A stretch of DNA of 64,000 nucleotides from Janthinobacterium lividum (GCA_050920985.1 JBPBQY010000044.1:22123-86122), one strand, 5' to 3'; shown: positions 52,506-64,000, numbered from the stretch's first letter. Translations and numbers: made by a program. Notes: generated from the letters alone by a model not told the origin.

Positions 52506-53693
52506 GTGACCTTCGGCATGGTGCACGTCCGCAGTCTGGCCTCCGCTGTCGCGATGCTGGCCCTGGCGTCGTCGCTCGGCGCCTGCGCCCTGGGATCGCG
52601 CGAGGACTTTACGCTCGCCGAACAGGCCGTGGCGGCGGTGCCGGGGTTCGGCGCCGTGCGGGTCTGGGGCGACGCGCCGGCACAGGAGATCGCCCGAGCG
52701 GTCCTGGGATCGGCGGCGCGGCCGAGCCCCGGCCACGACGTCAACGTCCTGGCCCTGTCGGGCGGCGGGGCAGGGGGCGCCTTCGCCTCCGGGCTCCTCG
52801 ACGGCTGGACGCGGCGCGGCGACCGCCCGAGCTTCGACGTCGTCACCGGCGTCTCGACGGGGGCTCTCATCGCGCCCTTCGCCTTCCTGGGCCCGGCCTA
52901 TGACGGCATCCTGGCCAGGCTCTACACGGGGGAGGGTGCCGGCGGCATCGTGGAGCCCGCCAACCTCATCGCCATCGCGACCGGCGACGGGCTGCTCGAC
53001 CCCGCCCCGCTGCGCCGCATGGTCGAGAGCTACGCGACGCCGGAACTGATCGCCGCGGTGGCGGCGGAACACCGGCGCGGTCGCCGTCTCCTCGTCGTCA
53101 CCACCAACCTCGATGCCCAGCGCCCCGTCGTGTGGAACATGGGCGCCATCGCGGCGAGCGGCCGGCCCGACGCTCCGGCCCTGTTCCGCGAGATCCTGGT
53201 CGCCTCCGCCAGCGTGCCGGCGGTGTTCCCGCCCGTGATGATCCATGCCGACGCCGGCAGCCACGCGCTCGAGGAGATGCATGTCGACGGCGTCGCCACG
53301 GCACAGATCTTCACCCGACCGGACGTCTTCGCCGGCGCCGGCGCCACACCGGGGCTGCGCCGCCGCGTCCATATCTGGGCCGTGGTCAACAATACGCTGC
53401 CGCCGGAATTCGCCGTCACCGCCAAGGGCACGCTGCCCATCGCCTACCGCTCGCTGTCGACGGTGTTCAAGGCCCAGACCTCGGCCGAGGTGACGGCGGC
53501 CTCCGAGATGGCGCATCGGCTCGGCGTCGATTTCGAGCTCGCCTATATCGACCATGCCGTGGCCTTCGACCCGACGACGCCCTTCGGGTCGAGCTACATG
53601 GACCGGGTCTATGCCATCGGCACCCGCGAGGGGCAGGATGGGAGCGTCTGGCGGCGTGACCTCGCCGGCCTGGGCACCCCCGCCAGGCCCTGA
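52506..53693 (+). CDS. Patatin-like phospholipase family lipoprotein
   Basis: Lipobox LGAC; LSGGGAGGAF, GVSTG nucleophile elbow, ASAS.P..FPP, HVDG. Confidence 0.9.
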   Translation: MTFGMVHVRSLASAVAMLALASSLGACALGSREDFTLAEQAVAAVPGFGAVRVWGDAPAQEIARAVLGSAARPSPGHDVNVLALSGGGAGGAFASGLLDGWTRRGDRPSFDVVTGVSTGALIAPFAFLGPAYDGILARLYTGEGAGGIVEPANLIAIATGDGLLDPAPLRRMVESYATPELIAAVAAEHRRGRRLLVVTTNLDAQRPVVWNMGAIAASGRPDAPALFREILVASASVPAVFPPVMIHADAGSHALEEMHVDGVATAQIFTRPDVFAGAGATPGLRRRVHIWAVVNNTLPPEFAVTAKGTLPIAYRSLSTVFKAQTSAEVTAASEMAHRLGVDFELAYIDHAVAFDPTTPFGSSYMDRVYAIGTREGQDGSVWRRDLAGLGTPARP

Positions 53694-53833
53694 CGACGCG
53701 GGAACGCTCGTCCGCGCGCAGCGGATGGACGAGATGTAATCCCTCGCCGTCTTGATGGATCGCGCCCGCGACGACACATTGAAGGTACTGAACCGGGCCC
53801 CTCTGGCGCCCCCTGACCTTGGTCGGTGGCGTG

Positions 53834-54490
53834 ATGTCGGATCAGTCTGTGCGAGACGTGGCGCGAGCCGCGTCGCCGTTCCGTCGGGGTCCGGATCCAT
53901 CCTCCCTCCCCACAGCGGCCTTCCTCGTGCAGCCCTTCCTCACCGGCCCGTGCCGATGGTTGCGCGGGCGTGTCGATCCTTTGGAGGTTCTCTTGGTCTA
54001 TCGCTCTCCCCGCCCGCCGTCCGATCTCGCCGCCGACGCGGCCGAGTTCCGCGAGCCCGCCTTCCGGGACGCGCTGATCGCGGGCGTGGCGATGGTGACC
54101 CATGCGGACGGCCACATGGCCTCGGCCGAGCGGAGCCGCTTCCTGTCGCTGATGGAAGAAGACCCGGCCCTCGCCACCTTCCCGCGCGACGGCGTCGTGG
54201 CCGAACTCGCCACGCACGAGGCGAACTACCGCTTCGATCCCGAAGTCGGGGCCGAGATGGCCCGCGAGAAGCTCGCCGGCATCGCGGGCCGCACGCGGCT
54301 CTGCGCGGCGCTGGTCCGCATCTGCCGCGCCATCATCCCGGCCGACGGCGTCATCCATCCCGCCGAGCACCGCGCCCTCGCCGAGATCCGCTCGGTGCTG
54401 GGGATAACAGCGCGTCCGGTGGTGTTCGGCGCCTACGGCAACTCCGCCTTCGTCACCGCCACGTCCCGCCGGACGGCGACGGGGTCGTAA
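53834..54490 (+). CDS. TerB-family (tellurite resistance/DjlA-like) protein
   Basis: Two ADG....E repeats (HADGHMASAER; PADGVIHPAEH..L.EI...LG). Confidence 0.8.
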   Translation: MSDQSVRDVARAASPFRRGPDPSSLPTAAFLVQPFLTGPCRWLRGRVDPLEVLLVYRSPRPPSDLAADAAEFREPAFRDALIAGVAMVTHADGHMASAERSRFLSLMEEDPALATFPRDGVVAELATHEANYRFDPEVGAEMAREKLAGIAGRTRLCAALVRICRAIIPADGVIHPAEHRALAEIRSVLGITARPVVFGAYGNSAFVTATSRRTATGS

Positions 54491-54579
54491 GACACCGAGG
54501 AGGGGCCGCACACCGCCATGTCTGTGGCAGTTGAAGGTACCGAACGGGTGAGCAGTACAGCCGGAAGCGCTGATCAGAC

Positions 54580-54628
54580 GGCTGGCGGGGGACCTGGATT
54601 CGAACCAAGCTTGACGGAGTCAGAGTCC
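54580..54628 (-). repeat. att site: degenerate 3' fragment of tRNA-Gln(CTG)
   Basis: Minus strand GGA-CTCTGAC-TCCGTCAAGCTTGGTTCGAATCCAGGTCCCCCGCCA; no 5' acceptor or D-arm upstream. Confidence 0.85.
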
Positions 54629-54973
54629 CCGTAAACGCACTGAATTCATTTGCCTTTTCTGTAGCCCGTGGTCTTTCGTTTACAGTCGCTCGCTGAACAT
54701 CGCTTCCGGCATGTAGCGCTGCGAACGCCAGTGGCCTCGGCATTGGCCCGGTCTCGGGGCCGGGCACCTCCGATAAGCCCCCTTCTCGGCGGTGAAAGTG
54801 ACTTGGTAGGCGCTTCTACGCCCGCCGGCTCCGCTTAGTCCTTCAAAGACCGCAGACATGCTTCGCGCTAACGCGTTGCTTTCGCTTGAGAAGAAGCGAG
54901 TGGGTCTCGGGCTAGGGGATAGCGAGATACCTATGAATGCCTGCTGTCGACAAAGGTGGTAGGTTTCACGCGA

Positions 54974-57900
54974 ATGAGCAAACAAAACCAAATTGCAGTG
55001 GGGATCGGTCCTTTGGCGAACACCGGCGAACTCGATTTCTATGACGCGGAGGCACTGCTCGACCGCCTTAGCACGGGACTTCAGAGCCAAGCACGTCAGG
55101 TCGTGTTTGTGGTCGGCTCAGGGCTGACTAATCCGGCCACTCCCGGCGGCCCCGGTGTTCCGGGGGTACAGGGTGTTATAGACCTGATTAGGGCCGAATT
55201 CACTGGCATTCAGTTGCAACAGCTTGAGGATACCTTGAGTACGTCTAGCAACGCGTACCAAGATGCCTTCAAGTTTCTCCTTGGGCGTAGAGGACCACAT
55301 ACAGCTAACGGCATAATAAAAAAGGCTGTAGCAAAGGCAAGGCGCATTTCAGTCGATGGCGATGGCGTCACTAAATACGAGATTAGTGCTTCGACCGATG
55401 ATGAAATTTGCAGATTATTCGACAATGACTCCTCTGGTTGGCTTTTAACGCCCGCGGTTGATGGCCTAGGCCGCATTGTTTCCGCCGAAAACAGCCCGTT
55501 CAACCGCATGGTGGTGACAACGAACTTCGATCCGCTGATTGGTGCAGCAATCGCGCGACATGGCGGCCATTCGTTCCGAACGTTTTTACACCGCGACGGC
55601 AGCTTAGGTCAGGCAGATGGATCTGGCACACACATCGTCCATCTGCATGGATACTGGTATGGATCCGACACGCTACATACTCCCCGACAGCTAGTTCAGC
55701 CTCGCCCGCAGCTAAAAGCTTCCTTGTCTCACCTTCTTCGCGGCAATATTTTTGTCGTCATGGCTTACAGTGGATGGGACGATGTTTTCACACGCACTCT
55801 CATGGACGTTGTTCTTGAAGACAGTTCGTTTCCTGAAATACTGTGGTGTTTTTACAATAAGAATCCTGAACCACGACAAGACCTGCTGAATATTCTGGGC
55901 CCCGGCATCGATCGGGGCAGCGTTATGCTTTATTCTGGAATAGATGTTCACGATTTTCTTCCCAGGCTAGGAGAACGGTGGGGCCTAGTAAAAGACGTAA
56001 GCGTCACAACGGCGGACCAGCCCGCAGCCTCTGAAGACGTAACCATCTCATCAGATAAGGCATCCGGCACAATCAGCGGAAGTACCCTTTCACTCCTACT
56101 GAGAGACATCGATCAAGACCGCCCTCCGCTTATTGAATTCCTAGTCGGACGCGACCAAGACCTCGAAGCTCTAGCTACATCTGCTTTTCGGGTCGGCTTT
56201 ATCACGGGGTTTGGAGGTCAAGGTAAATCGGCTTTAGCCGCTGCATATTTCAAAAGTGTTGAGGCAGCCTCAGCTTTTCCACTTCGGATTTGGCGCGACT
56301 GTCGGGAGCAGAGCGCACGATTTGAGGATCAGATTGTCGCAATCGTAAAAGCCTTAAGCAATGGAAGCGTAAGCGGCGCTGAATTGGCTCAACAGCCTAT
56401 TTCGGACTTGGCTGACCTTTTCGTCAAGCTCACAGAAGATGCCCCCATGTTGCTCGTCTTCGATAACATGGACCACTATGTCGACATAGAACGTCGCACA
56501 TTGACAGGTGATGCCGGTCGTTTCGTGGAAAGGTTCCTACACTCAGACTCGCTATCGCGGCTTGTTCTAACATGCCGTCCAACAATAAAGCAAAGCGATG
56601 AAGCAACGTTTTCCCGACATCTCGAAGGGTTAACACTGCCAGCTACCGAACGCTTGTTCGCTTTACGGAAAACGATGGCCGATTTAGCTAGCGTAGAACG
56701 TGCCCACGCCGCGACAAAGGGGCATTCGTTTTGGCTCGATCTTTTAGCAGCTCAGGTCGCCCGGAGAGCTCCTGAAGTCAAGTTGGATGATCTTTTGTCG
56801 TCGATTTCGGACGGCACAGGCGAGCTACCTGACGCAACGCTTCGCTCAATTTGGCGTTCCTTGCGGCCACGCGAACAGGTAACGCTGCAAGCGCTTGCAG
56901 AGGTACTAAGACCGACCACCCACCTTGAGCTGGCAGACTATGTTAGAAACAGCTTGCATTATAAGAACTTTAACAAAGCGGTCAAGCTTCTTAGAGACCT
57001 CAACCTTATCGTTGTAAAAACGAAGGATAATGAAGCGGAGACTTACGAACTCCATCCGCTCATTCGCGCATTTATCCAAAAGACTATACCTCGGATTGAA
57101 CGTACACCTTTCATATTAGCCATCCTCCAGAGTTATGCTGCATGGCTAGGCTCGCACAAAATACAGTTGAGCAAGCGGCCTGGGCCTGGGATCGTCCACC
57201 GATGGATCGAGGCTGCTGAGCTGTGCCTAAATGCGGATAAAAACGAAGAAGCTTTAGGGCATCTAAGTGAAATAGGCCGTGCTGTAAGACTGTCTGAGCC
57301 TCCGAACGAGTTCGTCAGAGTATCCCAACGCCTGTTCGATTCTTCCGATCTATCTAAGCTGAAGCTTTCGCGATCTTTCGATCGCGTGTACAATGCATAT
57401 CTACGGCTTCTCGTCCATCTTGGTCGAACAGAAAGCGCAGCGGAAGCTCTGCATATGTTCAGCTCAACCCTCGATGGTAAGGATACGCGTTATATATTGT
57501 ACTGCGATATGCAGTGTTATATGCATTGGGTAAACGGAGAGTATTCAGTGGCCATTCGCTGGGGCATGGAGGGAGAAGAGCTTCGATCTTCCGGGGTAGA
57601 TACTAAGTACTCCGCTGCTCATAATTTAGCGCTTGCTCAACGGGACGCAGGTGCTATCGAACCAGCGCTCAAGTATTTTCTACAAGGGGTGCCGCTGGCC
57701 GATGTAGTCGATCCGAATAAGATAGATAGGGACCTTGGCGGTGCTTTGTACGGCAATGTCGGTCGTTGCCTTCAACTAATGGGGCAAATCGACTCTGCAA
57801 TTTCTTGTTTCAAGAAATCTGCTAAGCTAATCGAAGACGAGAAGGACGATCTAGATTTCGAGAATCAAGCTTTCATTCGACAGTGGATTGGTGATCTACT

Positions 57901-58096
57901 TTTTGTGCGTGGAGATACGAAGACATCACGGCTGTTTATGGAAGCTGCAGTTGGCAAGTGGTCTATTATTTCTCCCCCAAGAGCCGAAAAACTTGTCGAA
58001 GCGATCCGTACACGCTTCGGTGAAGGTGAGATAAACCCCCATGATGCAGAACTCCAAGTTCTGATTTGGATCATGAAAGTAGATCTACCGAATTGA
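54974..58096 (+). CDS. SIR2-like + STAND (NB-ARC-like) NTPase + TPR protein; Avs/NLR-like antiphage candidate
   Basis: SIR2: VFVVGSGLT, TTNFD, HLHG, YSGWDD. NTPase: VGRD.DL, GFGGQGKS, LLVFDN.D, LTCR, GHSFWL, YELHPLIR. Helical repeat C terminus. Confidence 0.88.
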   Translation: MSKQNQIAVGIGPLANTGELDFYDAEALLDRLSTGLQSQARQVVFVVGSGLTNPATPGGPGVPGVQGVIDLIRAEFTGIQLQQLEDTLSTSSNAYQDAFKFLLGRRGPHTANGIIKKAVAKARRISVDGDGVTKYEISASTDDEICRLFDNDSSGWLLTPAVDGLGRIVSAENSPFNRMVVTTNFDPLIGAAIARHGGHSFRTFLHRDGSLGQADGSGTHIVHLHGYWYGSDTLHTPRQLVQPRPQLKASLSHLLRGNIFVVMAYSGWDDVFTRTLMDVVLEDSSFPEILWCFYNKNPEPRQDLLNILGPGIDRGSVMLYSGIDVHDFLPRLGERWGLVKDVSVTTADQPAASEDVTISSDKASGTISGSTLSLLLRDIDQDRPPLIEFLVGRDQDLEALATSAFRVGFITGFGGQGKSALAAAYFKSVEAASAFPLRIWRDCREQSARFEDQIVAIVKALSNGSVSGAELAQQPISDLADLFVKLTEDAPMLLVFDNMDHYVDIERRTLTGDAGRFVERFLHSDSLSRLVLTCRPTIKQSDEATFSRHLEGLTLPATERLFALRKTMADLASVERAHAATKGHSFWLDLLAAQVARRAPEVKLDDLLSSISDGTGELPDATLRSIWRSLRPREQVTLQALAEVLRPTTHLELADYVRNSLHYKNFNKAVKLLRDLNLIVVKTKDNEAETYELHPLIRAFIQKTIPRIERTPFILAILQSYAAWLGSHKIQLSKRPGPGIVHRWIEAAELCLNADKNEEALGHLSEIGRAVRLSEPPNEFVRVSQRLFDSSDLSKLKLSRSFDRVYNAYLRLLVHLGRTESAAEALHMFSSTLDGKDTRYILYCDMQCYMHWVNGEYSVAIRWGMEGEELRSSGVDTKYSAAHNLALAQRDAGAIEPALKYFLQGVPLADVVDPNKIDRDLGGALYGNVGRCLQLMGQIDSAISCFKKSAKLIEDEKDDLDFENQAFIRQWIGDLLFVRGDTKTSRLFMEAAVGKWSIISPPRAEKLVEAIRTRFGEGEINPHDAELQVLIWIMKVDLPN

Positions 58097-58549
58097 AGTT
58101 CCTCGGACCTTGTAAGTGGCTCTGCTTTCGCTCTGAAAATCGTCCTACGGTTCATGAGCGTCGTAGACGCGAGAGTGAAACAACGAGCAATCTGCCTTCA
58201 GTTTTGGTAGATTGGCTGAACACCGCTGTGCTCCCCCTTGGACGAGCTCTGAACTTGTGAGACGGAAGCTTCCGAGAAGGGCCACTTTCGGAAGCTGGCT
58301 GAGAGCCTGCCTCGAGTGGCGACCCGGGACTTGCTCTGGTCCACCTTGCAGTGCGTGTTCACGACCTGCTGCCCCTACGCGACCTGTGATCAACAGTGGC
58401 ACTCGTCCGTTGACGCGAGGTCGTAGGGCAAGCTCCTGTATTGTCTTGCTACTTCTCGCTAACCTGTAGCCTGCTTCCAAAATGCCGTAGTGGGCAGGGT
58501 CCCCCATGTGCTATCGATTAGTACAGGACGGGCAACTCTGGAAGCCACG

Positions 58550-59458
58550 ATGAAATCCGAGTGGGAGCTTTTCGTTGTCGGCAAGGGTCCGCCGGTACCA
58601 AGCAACAGCAGCTGGAGACCATTGCTGGCCGTACATCACGGTACTCATCTTAAGGCCGCCGGTCGCATCGCCGAAGACGAACGCATCGCCAGCGACCTAG
58701 TCGCTGATGGCAGACTAGCCAGCACGAGGGAGAAGTTCGTTTTCACGACGCCGAAGAGATGGCCTGACGGCAATCGGTATGGAAGCTTCGAATTCGAGCT
58801 CGACTGGCTCCACGTGATCAAGGGTCGTCAGCTTTATTGGGTCGAAAGCCTCGCTGGATATGAGGTTCCAGTTTTCCGGATCCTAGCATCGCGAAAGGAC
58901 GTAAGCGCTTTACCGGTTGTCCCATACGATCCCGTGGCGGACCAAGGTCCTGTCCGGCTGGTCGGTACCGAGTGGTACTGGGCGCGCGATCATGCGGCGG
59001 AAATCCTGCTTGACGAGGACGTACCGCTCGCGGACATCAATACGCTCTCGTTCGCAAAACACGACGACAAGCGTTGTAGCCAGCGACCGGGCGGATCATG
59101 CCCTGAGGCGGGAGCAGCCAATAGCTGGCACTCTCATGCTGCTTTGATGAGCATGTTGCTCGGCCGCCGCCTAACCTCGCTGGACAAGCTTTTGGTTCAG
59201 AATGGGAAGTTCTCGCCGGGAGCATTCAACGCTTTGGGTTGGTTGTGGTTCTACTTAGGAGGTGTGCGGTCGAGAACCGGGCCATTGGCGAACGATGCGC
59301 AGGCAGCGGACCTGCTGCGCTCGGCGCTTCTTCTCTTGCATGCCGGCGACCGCGATGGCGCACTTCAGGTGCTCGATCTGGTCGACGCTCAATCACGGGT
59401 TCTTCAGTCATTCGAGCAGGCCATCGAAGGCCATTTCGGTGTTCCTGCCTGGGATTGA
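58550..59458 (+). CDS. Hypothetical protein with putative ADP-ribosyltransferase (DarT/HYE-like) fold
   Basis: HHGTH...A.RI, FVFTTP..W..GNRYG, AEILLDEDVPL.DI resembling the DarT AEFLV..VP..I catalytic strand. Confidence 0.55.
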   Translation: MKSEWELFVVGKGPPVPSNSSWRPLLAVHHGTHLKAAGRIAEDERIASDLVADGRLASTREKFVFTTPKRWPDGNRYGSFEFELDWLHVIKGRQLYWVESLAGYEVPVFRILASRKDVSALPVVPYDPVADQGPVRLVGTEWYWARDHAAEILLDEDVPLADINTLSFAKHDDKRCSQRPGGSCPEAGAANSWHSHAALMSMLLGRRLTSLDKLLVQNGKFSPGAFNALGWLWFYLGGVRSRTGPLANDAQAADLLRSALLLLHAGDRDGALQVLDLVDAQSRVLQSFEQAIEGHFGVPAWD

Positions 59459-59749
59459 CTCAGGTCAGAATTTTGCTGATTGCGGGCACCTTGGTTTGCC
59501 CACCCTCGGACTAGACTAAGCGCTGCGAACATCGTCTCTCCGCTACGATTGGGTCAGGGCACTCTTGTTCCGAGAAGGGCGATGATCGGCAGTGACTGGT
59601 CTCGGCAAACGGCCGCTGGCGACCCGATGTCATCGCAGAAGGACAAGGAAGTTTCATGTACCATCTTGGTGCTGCGGCGGCCCGAGTCGGGCGAGCGCTA
59701 CCATTGTGGTCTGAGACAGCGCTGACGTGCAGAACGGGAGGGGACTGAC

Positions 59750-60115
59750 GTGGGAGGCGCACGCTTTGCAAGAACATGGTGCATATTATGCGCTATTTTG
59801 ATAGCAGCTTTAGGTGCCGCAAACATATTTTTGGGCGTGATCTACAACATCGACCCATCCATTGGCTATCAGCACACATTCTTTGTGATCGCAAGCATAT
59901 GGATGCTTCCTCCCTTAGTACTTTTTTTAGCTAGATGGGATCCTATGTACGATTGGTTTCTCCGGAAATGTAAGGAGAAGCAGCCACAGCTCGACGCCGA
60001 GTACCAAACCCGGTTGTTGGTGATCGTTTCTAGTTTCTGCGTCATATTCTCATTGTATTGTTCCTATAAAGATTATGCCGTTATCGTGTGGCACGTTACC
60101 AAGTTCAATTTTTAG
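59750..60115 (+). CDS. Hypothetical small membrane protein (about 3 TM)
   Basis: Three hydrophobic stretches; AT-rich codons; GGGA upstream. Confidence 0.55.
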   Translation: MGGARFARTWCILCAILIAALGAANIFLGVIYNIDPSIGYQHTFFVIASIWMLPPLVLFLARWDPMYDWFLRKCKEKQPQLDAEYQTRLLVIVSSFCVIFSLYCSYKDYAVIVWHVTKFNF

Positions 60116-60453
60116 CTGCTTGTCTCCACCGGTTCGGTTCATCGCTACCGAGAAGGACCGTTACCGGAGGCAACCGATCGAGGTTGCTGGACACCTATGC
60201 CGTCGCACACGAAAAGCACGACCGGCGAAGCGGTTGATCGCTGCAAGTCTCGGCGCTAAAGGGTGCGTCGCGTCGTACAGCCGTGTTCGCTTCGCTTTCT
60301 GAATATCCGAAGCGAACTCACCGCTTCGACCGCTATAGGTGAGACTTGGCTGATAGCAGCGTGCATGTGAGGGGTGTGGCAGGTGTAGTAACGATCTCTC
60401 GTCCGGTGGAATCCGGTGCTGCGTCGCTCACCGTCCGACGTGAGGAGGAATGA

Positions 60454-61005
60454 ATGGGTTGCTCTCGCGCGCTGTTTCTGTGCGTCCCTCTGGTAGTTTT
60501 CGCGGTGACGCAGGGCGCATATCGGATCTATCTTCCGCACCTCCCAACGGCTCTCGCCTACTGGCATGCCCCAGGCGGGCCTAGCGGTCCCTATTACAGC
60601 CCATTCCTGTCTAACCAGACGGAGCTTAACGATCAGAACTTCAGTTTCTTTTGGATCTGTATTGGGTTGAACGCGACGTTTTGCATCCTGTGGGTGTCGG
60701 CTGGATTGTGGGTGACGTTCAGGCGTTGGTCCGAAACGATCAAACGACGGCGCCTCCAACAAGGAGATGATCAACTGCTGGCTCAGATGTTTGCCGCTAT
60801 CGCACTGTGCCTCTGGTTCCTCTTCGGGAATATTCCAGGGCGAGTGCATGGCGTCTATGAGGCAGTGATGGTCGAAAATCTATACATGTACGTATACATT
60901 TATGCGATTTTTGTTTACTTAACGGTGGGCATCGCTGCCTTCATTGTCGTGTACGGGTTCGCCCTGCGTGCCTTTCGACGGGAAAGGTTGGGACTGATGC
61001 GGTGA
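60454..61005 (+). CDS. Hypothetical membrane protein (about 4 TM)
   Basis: RBS GAGGA; hydrophobic aromatic-rich helices. Confidence 0.55.
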   Translation: MGCSRALFLCVPLVVFAVTQGAYRIYLPHLPTALAYWHAPGGPSGPYYSPFLSNQTELNDQNFSFFWICIGLNATFCILWVSAGLWVTFRRWSETIKRRRLQQGDDQLLAQMFAAIALCLWFLFGNIPGRVHGVYEAVMVENLYMYVYIYAIFVYLTVGIAAFIVVYGFALRAFRRERLGLMR

Positions 61006-61296
61006 TGCAGACCGTATTCCACCCCGAGTGGCCGTCCGACTGGTACGTTTGGGTGTGCCCTAAGCGAAGTGGACAGGTCGCTTCGTTTGGCTCCGATGAC
61101 GGGGCATTCAAATCGAAGTTTCTCAATCGAACCACCTAAAATGAAGCACTTTTCGATAGTGGACCGACGGCCGAGTGACGCTGCCTGGACAACTAATTTG
61201 CAGCCACCATCCGCGATCGCGCTACGCCCGGGATGAGTTGGGACCGGAGCACGACTTGCTCCAGGACCCCTCCGGTAATTGCCCTTTTCGGAACGT

Positions 61297-61329
61297 AAAA
61301 AGGGCGCCCCGGCCGACCCGGGACGCCCT
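61297..61329 (-). terminator. Intrinsic terminator on the minus strand
   Basis: Plus strand AAAAAGGGCGCCCCGG-CCGA-CCCGGGACGCCCT = GC hairpin plus T-run on minus, downstream of the PemK-like remnant. Confidence 0.6.
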
Positions 61330-61409
61330 GGCACGTAGCTCCCCCGAGGAAAACGGACACCCTTCCGGAGCCGCAAGTCCATTCAGTATAGGCACGGCTG
61401 TCCCGGGGC

Positions 61410-61618
61410 TCAAGCCGAGTGCGGCGCCAGCGCCGGGAAACGGCGCAGCACCAGCGCCAGCACCGCCGTGAACTCCTCCGGAGGCAGGCGATGCCGGCCG
61501 GAGCGGTCGAGCGACAGTCGGCTGACCGCGACCGTGGTAGGCTTATCGCACACGGCCCAGGACGGTCCTGCCCCGTCGATCGCCGTGGCGAGCTGCACGG
61601 CCCAGGGATTAGCATCCT
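61410..61618 (-). pseudogene. C-terminal remnant of a PemK/MazF-like toxin
   Basis: DANPWAVQLATAIDG.GPSWAVCDKPTTVAVSRL...L..EEF..VL.LVL; in-frame TAG immediately upstream, N-terminal half absent. Confidence 0.55.
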
Positions 61619-61715
61619 AGTCCTGAGACGACCACGGAACCACTACGACGGTCCGGAAGGCAGATTTCGGAGAAGCTGAACAGAGCAGTACAGCCGAAAC
61701 GCTCTGCTCAACGAC

Positions 61716-61762
61716 TGGCTGGGGGACCTGGATTCGAACCAAGATTGACGGAGTCAGAGTCC
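61716..61762 (-). repeat. att site: 47-nt 3' fragment of tRNA-Gln(CTG) ending in CCA
   Basis: Minus strand GGA-CTCTGAC-TCCGTCAATCTTGGTTCGAATCCAGGTCCCCCAGCCA; 5' half absent. Confidence 0.9.
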
Positions 61763-61878
61763 AAAAAAGCCGGTTTTGAGCACCTTTAACGGGCTTTGCT
61801 AAGCCGAAATTGCTGAGCGAAATCAACGAAACGAGCTGTAACGAGCTTCGTTGACCATCGGTCCGTTTTGCGTCATCT

Positions 61879-61947
61879 GCTTACCTGCCGCTTACCCGCT
61901 CGGGGTGTCCATTGATCTAGGGCGCCCTCGGGTAAGCAGCTTACCCG
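61879..61947. promoter_or_regulatory. GCTTACC repeat array and perfect palindrome (putative integrase arm-type/operator sites)
   Basis: GCTTACC at 61879 and 61890 (11-bp spacing); CGGGTAAGC-A-GCTTACCCG at 61929-61947, abutting the RBS. Confidence 0.6.
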
Positions 61948-61957
61948 GAGGCGAGGC

Positions 61958-63151
61958 GTGCCGACAATCAAGCTCAATCAGCGCGCAGTCGACGCCCTCG
62001 CATTCGAGGGTAAGCGCAACATTGTATGGGATGCGGGGACGCCCGGCTTTGGGGTTATCGTCTACGCCACGTCCAAGGCCTACACGGTCCAATATCGGGT
62101 TGACGGGCAATCCCGCCGGGTGAACCTCGGGTCAACGGCCGAGCACAGCTTCAAGGCCGCTCGCGACAAGGCGGCAGACATCCTCCAGGCGGCCCGTAAG
62201 GGAACGGACCTGATCTCGCCTCCGGTCGCGAAGCGAGTCACGTTCCAAGCCTGCGCTGAAGAGTGGATGAAGCTCAAAAGGCCCGAGTGGTCCCCCGCCA
62301 CCTATGAGGATTACGAGGACCGCTTTTCCAGGCTCATCTTCGCTCGACAGAATGGCGACGGTGCTGAGGTCGGGATCGGCGCCAAGGCGCTACAGGACGT
62401 CTCCCCGGTAGACGTGGAGAAGCTACACGCGAGCATGGTCGGAAGTCCTCGAAATCAGAGCTACACGGTCACGCTTATCAAGGCCGTGTTCAACTATGCC
62501 GTTCGGGCGAAACACCTCGACCCCTCGCACCACAATCCCGCAAACTTGGCACAGCTCCCCCGCAACAAGGATGCCGAGCCGAAAGAGCAGCGTGTCCTAA
62601 CCGGCCCGGAGGTGGAGAAGTTGGGCAAGGCGCTCGCCGCTATGGAAGCCGCTGGCGAAGTCTCCCCCCATCTCGCGGGACTTCTACGAATCTCCCTACT
62701 GTGCGGATTGCGGCCCGGTGAGGCTCGAAGCGTGAAGTGGGAGAATGTGGACCTAGACAGTCGCATCATGCGCGTGACGGGGAAGACGGGCACTCGGCGC
62801 GTGCCGCTGTCGGACGCTGCGGTCGAGGTGCTGAAGCGGGTCCATGAGTACCGGCAGGCCGCGAACCCTTACGTCTTCATAGGTCGCGTGACAGGGCAGC
62901 ACCTTGTCGGGATCGCAAAGCAGCTCGACAGGATTGCCGAGCGGGCAGGGGTGCCGCGCTTCAACCCCTATGTCTTCCGCCACAGTGCCGCGACACAGTC
63001 ACTCGCGGGCGGCGCCGACGTGCGAGCTGTGCAAGCGCTGCTGGGGCATACTGACTTGAAGACGACGATGGTCTACCTTCATGCGGATGAGGACCGGAAG
63101 CGGAAAGCGGTGGGTCACGTTGAGGCGTTCGCGAAAGCATTTGCAAAATGA
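61958..63151 (+). CDS. Tyrosine recombinase/integrase with N-terminal arm-binding domain
   Basis: WD...PGFGV.V......Y.VQYR..G..RR..LG; catalytic CGLRPGE, GKTG, YVFRHS.AT, LLGH....TT.VY. Confidence 0.95.
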   Translation: MPTIKLNQRAVDALAFEGKRNIVWDAGTPGFGVIVYATSKAYTVQYRVDGQSRRVNLGSTAEHSFKAARDKAADILQAARKGTDLISPPVAKRVTFQACAEEWMKLKRPEWSPATYEDYEDRFSRLIFARQNGDGAEVGIGAKALQDVSPVDVEKLHASMVGSPRNQSYTVTLIKAVFNYAVRAKHLDPSHHNPANLAQLPRNKDAEPKEQRVLTGPEVEKLGKALAAMEAAGEVSPHLAGLLRISLLCGLRPGEARSVKWENVDLDSRIMRVTGKTGTRRVPLSDAAVEVLKRVHEYRQAANPYVFIGRVTGQHLVGIAKQLDRIAERAGVPRFNPYVFRHSAATQSLAGGADVRAVQALLGHTDLKTTMVYLHADEDRKRKAVGHVEAFAKAFAK

Positions 63152-63525
63152 TACGTCGCTTGAAGACATTCTTTTCTGATGTGCATCCCAAGTTTATTGA
63201 AGCTACCGGCATAGCGCTGGTTCTGGCCGCTGCGCTTTGGTCTTATTACACCAAAGAAGCTCTTGATACCAAACTACAAAGAAATGAAGCGAAACTCCTC
63301 AACCTCAGGCTAGTTGGAATTGAGCAGATGATTGCTGCGGATCACGCACTGCGCAAAGAATTCCTTTTTGAAGATCGCGACAATTTCGATGCTGCATATA
63401 AAGCGATTGATGATTTAAGAAATGATGGGACCTATAAAATGCTCTCCTGGTTGAAGCTAAGTATGTATTCATGTGGGACCATTCTTCTAATTGCAGCAAA
63501 GATAAAAGAGGGTTTGAAAAGATGA
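63148..63525 (+). CDS. Hypothetical 2-TM protein translationally coupled to the integrase
   Basis: ATGA overlap; hydrophobic helices near both ends with a coiled linker; AT-rich. Confidence 0.65.
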   Translation: MIRRLKTFFSDVHPKFIEATGIALVLAAALWSYYTKEALDTKLQRNEAKLLNLRLVGIEQMIAADHALRKEFLFEDRDNFDAAYKAIDDLRNDGTYKMLSWLKLSMYSCGTILLIAAKIKEGLKR

Positions 63526-63581
63526 TGGCTCTGAAAAGCGGTTACCTCACAAGCTACGGGTAACGAGCGACGTGAAGCAGC

Positions 63582-64000
63582 TTAATTTAATGCCCACTGC
63601 GAAATTAAGTTCGCCTCGCCTATCGGCACTTGTAGTAGCTGAAATCGTGCAACGAGCCCATCTTGACCCGGTATAAAATTGACAATGCAAGGTATTGCCT
63701 CTGGTTTCGGCGCGCTCAATTCGACCAATCTCGCATAGTATACTTTTATTAATTCAATAGCGTTGCCAGAGTCATGCATCAGATATGCCATCAGCCGCTT
63801 ATGACTTTCTAAATATTCGATTGATGAAATATATATTTCTAGGCTTTCATATCCCTCTCGAATGATTTCCGACTTGAAAGATTCCTGAACTTTTCGGTTA
63901 CTTAATAGCTGTTGAGTATCTATCCTCATACTTATTTCAAGTTTAGGCGACTTAGTATTTACGTCGTTTATGGAAATGGGCACAGTAGTTATGGGAGGCT
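63582..64000 (-). CDS. 3' part of a low-GC hypothetical gene (5' end off window)
   Basis: Frame stays open to base 64000; no family recognised. Confidence 0.55.
   Translation of the reverse strand, partial: PPITTVPISINDVNTKSPKLEISMRIDTQQLLSNRKVQESFKSEIIREGYESLEIYISSIEYLESHKRLMAYLMHDSGNAIELIKVYYARLVELSAPKPEAIPCIVNFIPGQDGLVARFQLLQVPIGEANLISQWALN

Follow-up and report, generated by a model that had tools for sequence, protein, structure and literature searches.

A tRNA-Gln(CTG) gene of Lichenibacterium with two islands stacked behind it, the outer one probably a decayed, integrase-less remnant that keeps a SIR2-STAND gene

We analyzed a 64-kb window of Lichenibacterium DNA (C12:22123-86122, that is, part of the 146-kb contig C12 of genome G000; positions are those of the window unless a contig or locus is named, and window-equivalent positions continue the same count past its right end), in which two displaced 3' fragments of a tRNA-Gln(CTG) gene enclose a 7.1-kb stretch of low-GC foreign DNA, here called the islet, and in which the second fragment also marks the start of an 18.9-kb integrative element, here called island A. 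ARAGORN finds no intact tRNA in the 64-kb window; among the 53 tRNA and transfer-messenger RNA (tmRNA) genes that it reports genome-wide there is a single tRNA-Gln(CTG), located 16.7 kb to the right of the window and oriented like both fragments. The landmarks of the locus are as follows.

54550-54582, minus strand: ~33-bp flank 3' of the left fragment, resembling its counterpart at the right fragment
54583-54628, minus strand: left (distal) displaced 3' fragment of tRNA-Gln(CTG), with two changes
54629-61715 (body 54629-61682): islet, 7.1 kb, low-GC foreign DNA between the two fragments
61683-61715, minus strand: islet-borne 33-bp flank, 3' of the right fragment, resembling its counterpart at the left fragment
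61716-61762, minus strand: right displaced 3' fragment of tRNA-Gln(CTG), 47/47 identical from G29 to the CCA end
61763 to window-equivalent 80672: island A, 18.9 kb, between the right fragment and the intact tRNA
C12 c[102795..102868], window-equivalent 80673-80746, minus strand: intact tRNA-Gln(CTG) (ARAGORN)

Both fragments begin at one base, G29, with the GGA of the 5' arm of the anticodon stem, and identity runs from there to the 3' end, which argues for a crossover in the anticodon loop. The right fragment, which is identical to the intact tRNA over 48/48 positions if one extra base is included, serves both elements as an attachment (att) site, distal for island A and proximal for the islet. 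The left fragment carries one substitution in the variable loop (54610, T to G in the tRNA sense) and lacks A72 (a 1-nt deletion between 54586 and 54587), its part of the anticodon stem-loop being undamaged. No further copy of the fragment was found genome-wide (blastn-short, E ≤ 1), and a chance repeat is ruled out by the absence of even a 39-nt version of it from 200 shuffles of a related locus (0/200). An earlier reading of the window from its sequence alone (the sequence-only reading) had described two 3'-only fragments starting at this GGA, the left one with two changes, and had ascribed them to successive integrations at a tRNA-Gln(CTG) gene whose intact copy should lie to the right in the same orientation. 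The fragments and both changes are as described, and the intact co-oriented gene lies where it was expected; of the interval then given, 54580-61762, the right limit is exact and the left is slightly too wide, as the left fragment starts at 54583.

The similarity of the two sites extends beyond the tRNA sequence: an 81-bp alignment at 90% joins 54550-54628 and 61683-61762, that is, the fragments plus their ~33-bp flanks. The intact tRNA's own flank is unrelated to this shared sequence. The flank of the left fragment partially resembles the tRNA-Gln downstream flank of a relative, G018, and, as far as such comparison goes, is probably the native sequence downstream of the tRNA. The 61683-61715 copy folds as a 13-bp hairpin (-19.9 kcal/mol) that is not significant (z -1.7 and +0.4), and the shared flank was rejected as a tRNA terminator on that ground; Rfam gave no match at E ≤ 0.1 in 54000-64000. 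GC content is ~0.70 on both sides of the array (core), 0.48-0.58 in the islet and 0.55-0.65 in island A, and the drop from ~0.70 coincides exactly with the interval from the left fragment to the right end of the islet.

Apart from a right-hand ~650 bp that is a patchwork of genus-like sequence fragments, the islet contains cargo genes, and at its right edge lies a gene remnant.

54974-58096, plus strand: SIR2-NB-ARC(STAND)-TPR protein, 1040 aa, full length (Pfam)
58550-59458, plus strand: orphan open reading frame (ORF), 302 aa
59750-60115 and 60454-61005, plus strand: two hydrophobic orphan ORFs, coding status uncertain
61434-61676, minus strand: PemK/MazF-like toxin pseudogene (tblastn), in the direction of the tRNA

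No integrase is recognizable among them. Pfam returned none on the ten islet ORFs, tblastn with the island-A integrase gave no match in the islet, and a six-frame genome scan for PF00589 (E ≤ 1) was empty over C12:76703-83837, its sole match on this contig being the integrase of island A; with all three negative, a hidden integrase pseudogene in the islet is rejected. Measured against Islander-type islands, the islet thus has the bounding fragments and the foreign DNA but not the integrase. The PemK/MazF pseudogene aligns at 58% identity with residues 49-129 of a homologue of 145 aa, contains an in-frame TAG at 61617-61619 and has lost its first ~48 codons. On the tRNA-proximal side of the islet, 6 nt separate the break from the 33-bp att flank; the pseudogene's homologue in G007 (L049:1427-1864, minus strand) matches Pfam PemK_toxin at 5.3e-11. 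We read the break, from its sequence context, as a probable deletion scar. Two relatives show what may be expected at this edge.

L029:18366-19670 (G011): tyrosine recombinase of a second, unrelated family, directly beside the intact tRNA
L026:331-1605 (G007): tyrosine recombinase of the same second, unrelated family, directly beside the intact tRNA

Both recombinase genes are convergent with the intact tRNA and occupy the position that is deleted in the islet. Because the toxin gene is truncated at the very edge where islands of the G011/G007 type keep their integrase, the islet's own integrase appears to have been lost, and the edge truncation adds support to the loss of the integrase proposed by the sequence-only reading.

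The cargo of the islet is also missing from its relatives. In a comparison set of 31 genus genomes (this one and 30 other Lichenibacterium species genomes), the cargo at 54631-61048 has no DNA match in any of the other 30, so that the region, in keeping with its earlier description as an insertion, is not stable core in relatives. From 61048 to 61654 there are short matches, 71-87%, at scattered genus loci. Within this genome, 61285-61462 and 61048-61155 have counterparts at C35:27971-28145 (80% identity) and C4:219406-219513 (76%), respectively; these stretches of 61048-61462 are short, look non-coding and also resemble L. minor loci.

The SIR2 gene is the main gene of the islet. In its product Pfam recognizes SIR2_2 at residues 185-311 (8.7e-9), AAA_16 at 396-507 and TPR at 931-962. 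It has 421 homologues of equal length, many with precomputed NB-ARC matches, and is full length against 120 homologues from many phyla among the matches listed, so the islet does retain, as was said earlier, a defense-type gene. The homologues carry no annotation beyond 'SIR2 family / NB-ARC domain protein', PADLOC recognizes only the SIR2 domain (pAgo-associated models, E ~1e-8), and no curated defense-system model matched in full (PADLOC; NCBIfam none). With an effector, a STAND NTPase and a repeat sensor combined in one protein, the gene product is a candidate single-gene NLR-like antiphage sensor-effector, as judged from its domain order. SIR2-STAND antiphage NLR-like proteins of the Avs5 type have reportedly been described by Gao et al. 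in 2022; like the islet protein, they have an N-terminal SIR2 domain, a central STAND/NB-ARC NTPase and a C-terminal repeat sensor encoded by a single gene, whereas the islet protein has no PADLOC Avs model match and its activity is predicted only. As to the surroundings of the gene elsewhere, a homologue in an Allosphingosinicella metagenome-assembled genome (MAG) is a lone insert between housekeeping genes, homologues at 50-55% identity lie in unrelated contexts, and no close relative was found in the assembled genome contigs searched.

The 302-aa ORF has no match in Pfam, PHROG, PADLOC or NCBIfam, and a PDB sequence search gave a best E of 0.67; its single-sequence AlphaFold2 model (mean predicted local distance difference test score, pLDDT, 37.8) is too poor for the fold to be read. 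Among 5.8 billion proteins it has one homologue (43% identity), which has no SIR2 gene adjoining, and the idea that the SIR2 gene and the ORF form an obligate pair was dropped. For the two hydrophobic ORFs the best results were a Pfam match below the cut-off (E 0.0023) and a PHROG match (E 0.009), neither of them significant.

On the other side of the shared att site lies island A, the tRNA-proximal element, with the following parts.

61763-61957: left end, with the integrase upstream region and candidate arm-type repeats
61958-63151, plus strand: P4-type tyrosine integrase, 397 aa, intact (Pfam)
63148-64000 (part within the window): low-GC slot, putatively for cargo, GC 0.41-0.48
63148-63525, plus strand: membrane ORF, 125 aa, in the low-GC slot
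63582-64478, minus strand: orphan ORF, 299 aa, in the low-GC slot, crossing the window end
Island A: HTH_17 protein
Island A: Ad1-like adaptor
Island A: portal, lambda-type
Island A: TerL, gpA-type
Island A: TerS
Island A: Neck1 protein, gpZ-like
Island A: PrimPol-AAA_25 primase-helicase
L001:15621-15980, island A, adjoining the tRNA: AlpA-like gene

The integrase has the Pfam domains Arm-DNA-bind_3, Phage_int_M and Phage_integrase (PF00589, 3.3e-29), and its RHSAAT...LGH...Y motifs are readable. The terminase/portal/adaptor/Neck1 block (L001:2900-9100, window-equivalent 66800-73000) stands beside the AlpA/PrimPol-helicase module, and P4-like satellites and phage-inducible chromosomal island (PICI)-like satellites are characterized by an integrase, an AlpA-type regulator and a primase-helicase with an incomplete set of virion genes. 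In island A, int, AlpA, PrimPol-AAA_25, TerS, TerL, portal, adaptor and Neck1 are present; no capsid, protease or tail gene was recognized among the scanned island-A ORFs, and the 125-aa and 299-aa ORFs of the low-GC slot have no family match. Of the 17 copies of the heptamer GCTTACC/GGTAAGC in the 146-kb contig, 8 lie in the two ends of island A, four per end within the last 200-270 bp (at 61879, 61890, 61931 and 61939 in the left end). By analogy with other integrases of this build, these repeats are probably the arm-type sites of the island-A integrase. Bounded by an intact tRNA gene (tDNA) and a co-oriented displaced fragment, with a tyrosine integrase inside, island A has what defines an Islander-type island. 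It is a phage-derived, discrete, sporadically distributed, mosaic integrative element, and it looks functional to the extent that sequence can tell, since the 48-bp repeats are perfect, the integrase is intact, the AlpA, PrimPol-helicase and TerS/TerL/portal/adaptor genes are present and the GCTTACC copies are clustered; a satellite-like architecture and a decayed mosaic prophage are equally possible descriptions of it.

Relatives of island A occur without the islet. The A-type integrase occurs in 3/31 genus genomes. L. minor RmlP026 has, in the same tRNA, an 18.5-kb island whose distal end holds an 85%-identical integrase. This island shares the boundary of island A (TTTTTT followed by GGACTCTG) and has a tRNA-proximal arm homologous to that of island A; its inner part is different and contains a tape-measure-like gene, a second integrase and a metallo-beta-lactamase (MBL)-fold protein. 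The relatives with this boundary stand alone in both L. minor and the Lichenibacterium MAG GL61, and in GL61 the homology to the present genome begins exactly at 61716. A DNA search of island A against the genus returned only a same-genome paralogue, with few candidates scored for so long a query, and a metagenome search with the island-A integrase gave only relatives at 30% identity or less. A low-GC block (GC 0.41-0.50) directly follows the integrase both in island A (63148-64000, L001:1-600) and in L. minor (L037:9459-12000), with differing contents; this block may be a variable defense-cargo slot of the island-A family. The MBL-fold protein of L. minor is weakly similar to LmuA and to the MBL associated with defense-associated reverse transcriptases (DRT), at E ~1e-12.

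The tRNA-Gln(CTG) gene itself is used by other elements. A different, 10.7-kb island occupies it in G011, and the displaced fragment there has a flank equal to that of the tRNA in G009, whose site is empty, which shows that tRNA-Gln(CTG) is a true integration site. Used by two or more integrase families and by three or more kinds of island, it is a multi-user hotspot. Across 12 relatives synteny is held 5' of the tRNA, and the 3' side is not conserved: the left-flank genes of the present array (histidine kinase, patatin and one of no assigned function) do not adjoin tRNA-Gln in any relative, and the DNA downstream of the tRNA in G009 and G018 either has no counterpart in this genome or maps to another place in it. 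The IalB flank gene gave no record in an exact-protein look-up. The last high-GC gene before the left fragment (53609-54534) has a 73%-identical paralogue on C26 and 75-77% matches elsewhere in relatives, never adjoining tRNA-Gln; there are long open frames on both of its strands, with no Pfam match on either.

Arrays of this kind are familiar from other bacteria. In the Islander survey (Hudson, Lau and Williams 2015, PMC4383910), an att site centred on the anticodon is the largest class (2083/3919 islands), 3' fragments mark 3760 islands and 125 tandem arrays were recorded (PMC4383910). The present locus shares with these islands the intact tDNA and co-oriented 3' fragments that mark the ends, the anticodon-centred att site and the tandem arrangement; it differs in its host, the little-studied genus Lichenibacterium (lichen-associated Hyphomicrobiales), and in that Islander counts only array members with their own integrase, so that the islet would be merged or dropped. 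Integration, decay to an integrase-less cis-mobilizable element (CIME) and accretion is a described route in streptococcal elements (PMC5704250), and in Prochlorococcus islands newcomers push older elements outward, degenerate remnants being left behind (bioRxiv 10.1101/2020.12.28.424599). Those tycheposon islands, like the present one, are tRNA-stacked elements split by partial tRNAs, some with PICI-like int/primase modules; they belong to another phylum and to another integrase and replication lineage, and the likeness is one of architecture.

Taken with the fragments, the truncated toxin gene and island A, this suggests, with a probability of roughly 0.75, that two unrelated integrative elements accreted in tandem at the single tRNA-Gln(CTG) and that one of them then decayed. 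Each element would have arrived through tyrosine-integrase recombination, with the anticodon loop as its centre, and would have brought its own 47-nt tRNA 3' part, which restored the gene and displaced the resident 3' part; this mode of entry is taken from the anatomy of the locus and the Islander-type model. The parent element of the islet, with its tRNA 3' part and genus-like flank, would have integrated first. A deletion running from just past the att flank into the PemK gene would then have taken the proximal end and most likely the integrase, the distal cargo, including the intact SIR2-NB-ARC-TPR gene, outlasting it. Island A would have come last, entering the restored tRNA and displacing the remnant outward. 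On this history the islet is most likely a fixed fossil that is no longer self-mobile.

It should be noted that several points weigh against this history. That the deleted segment contained the integrase is most likely, and is something we infer, as is the ancestral state of the site, its 3' synteny being unconserved; no genome of the same species turned up in which the site was empty or had a single occupant, and exact-pattern scans of genome and metagenome contigs for a same-species site gave nothing. The arm-type call on GCTTACC is by analogy with arm-binding integrases. The genome is probably metagenome-assembled, and the junction between island A and the islet crosses a 48-bp repeat. Last, the order of arrival is unreadable from topology, as either order gives one and the same map.

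The last point allows the opposite order, in which island A came first and the parent of the islet later entered the displaced fragment and decayed fast. The final topology would be identical, the displaced fragment retains the whole anticodon loop and 3' arm, and entry into the att site of an element already in place is known for tandem elements (PMC5704250). However, decay in the islet is far advanced (the integrase is absent, the toxin gene is truncated and interrupted by a stop, the right end is a patchwork), whereas in island A the repeats are perfect and the integrase is intact, and the outermost fragment is the only mutated copy; we therefore regard this order as unlikely. The same contrast speaks for, but does not show, the greater age that the sequence-only reading gave the islet, as a later insertion would leave the same topology.

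The probable metagenomic origin raises another alternative, namely that two strains' alternative occupants of the site were joined in tandem by the assembler through the 48-bp repeat. In sample SRR33594943 the Logan unitigs number in the millions, suggesting a metagenome, and the k=31 unitig that contains the integrase begins within the repeat, 30 nt in, where the graph branches. Such a k=31 branch is equally expected from a true tandem array, however, and the usual assemblers end at k ≥ 55, which spans 48 bp; the contig is 146 kb long, the estimated genome contamination is 2.9%, and the left fragment's own mutations make that junction unique. An artefact of this kind is accordingly given only a very slim chance, and two accreted elements, one decayed, remain the preferred reading of the array.

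Could the islet nevertheless still move? The sequence-only reading had suggested that the neighboring integrase might mobilize it in trans, which would make it a CIME-like hitch-hiker, mobilizable in cis or in trans, moving alone or with island A. In favor of this, the left fragment has kept its anticodon stem-loop whole and starts at the same base as the right one, the islet adjoins an element with an intact integrase and an AlpA gene, and tandems of a CIME with an integrative and conjugative element (ICE) have been observed to transfer together (PMC5704250). The integrase, however, has an arm-binding domain, and the candidate arm repeats flank island A only: GCTTACC is absent from 54631-61715, the ends of the islet are without any repeated motif, its proximal arm region has been lost as far as 6 nt short of the flank, and no copy of the islet exists elsewhere in the other genus genomes. 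By analogy with lambda- and P4-type systems, it is not favored that either the islet alone or the composite with island A could present two arm-bearing partners, and mobilization of the islet by the island-A integrase is therefore unlikely; overall we consider the hitch-hiker highly improbable, and the earlier suggestion is not favored by the sequence of the islet ends. The comparison with CIMEs leads in the same direction. Like ICESt1/ICESt3-CIME of Streptococcus thermophilus (PMC5704250), the islet is att-bounded, has probably lost its integration genes by deletion and stands in tandem with an intact element, and its core repeats are kept; in CIMEs, however, the att sites are recognized by the partner integrase and cis-mobilization has been demonstrated, whereas the islet has one end deleted and is without its partner's arm-type repeats, so that, with the absence of GCTTACC as a sequence proxy, recognition by the neighbor's integrase would not be expected. 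The partner also differs, being phage-like here and conjugative in the CIME case.

A bolder variant has the island-A integrase recombine the outer fragment with the tRNA, the resulting 26-kb composite being replicated and packaged by means of the PrimPol, terminase and portal genes. If this were true, a recombinase-less SIR2-STAND cassette would spread between Lichenibacterium strains on a satellite-like element; we hold it to be a faint prospect, and the islet to be most likely fixed in place.

The process sketched here is well known and current understanding is unchanged by it; the value of the locus lies in a correct annotation and a worked example, in which the missing arm-type sites give a sequence-level reason to doubt easy trans-mobilization. 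The islet would still be useful to its host if the SIR2 gene defends against phage. In this sense the locus illustrates how a defense gene may become fixed, with landing in a tRNA hotspot, loss of mobility by deletion and an outward push, after which the immune gene is left behind. It also documents tRNA-Gln(CTG) as an integration hotspot in the lichen-associated genus Lichenibacterium.

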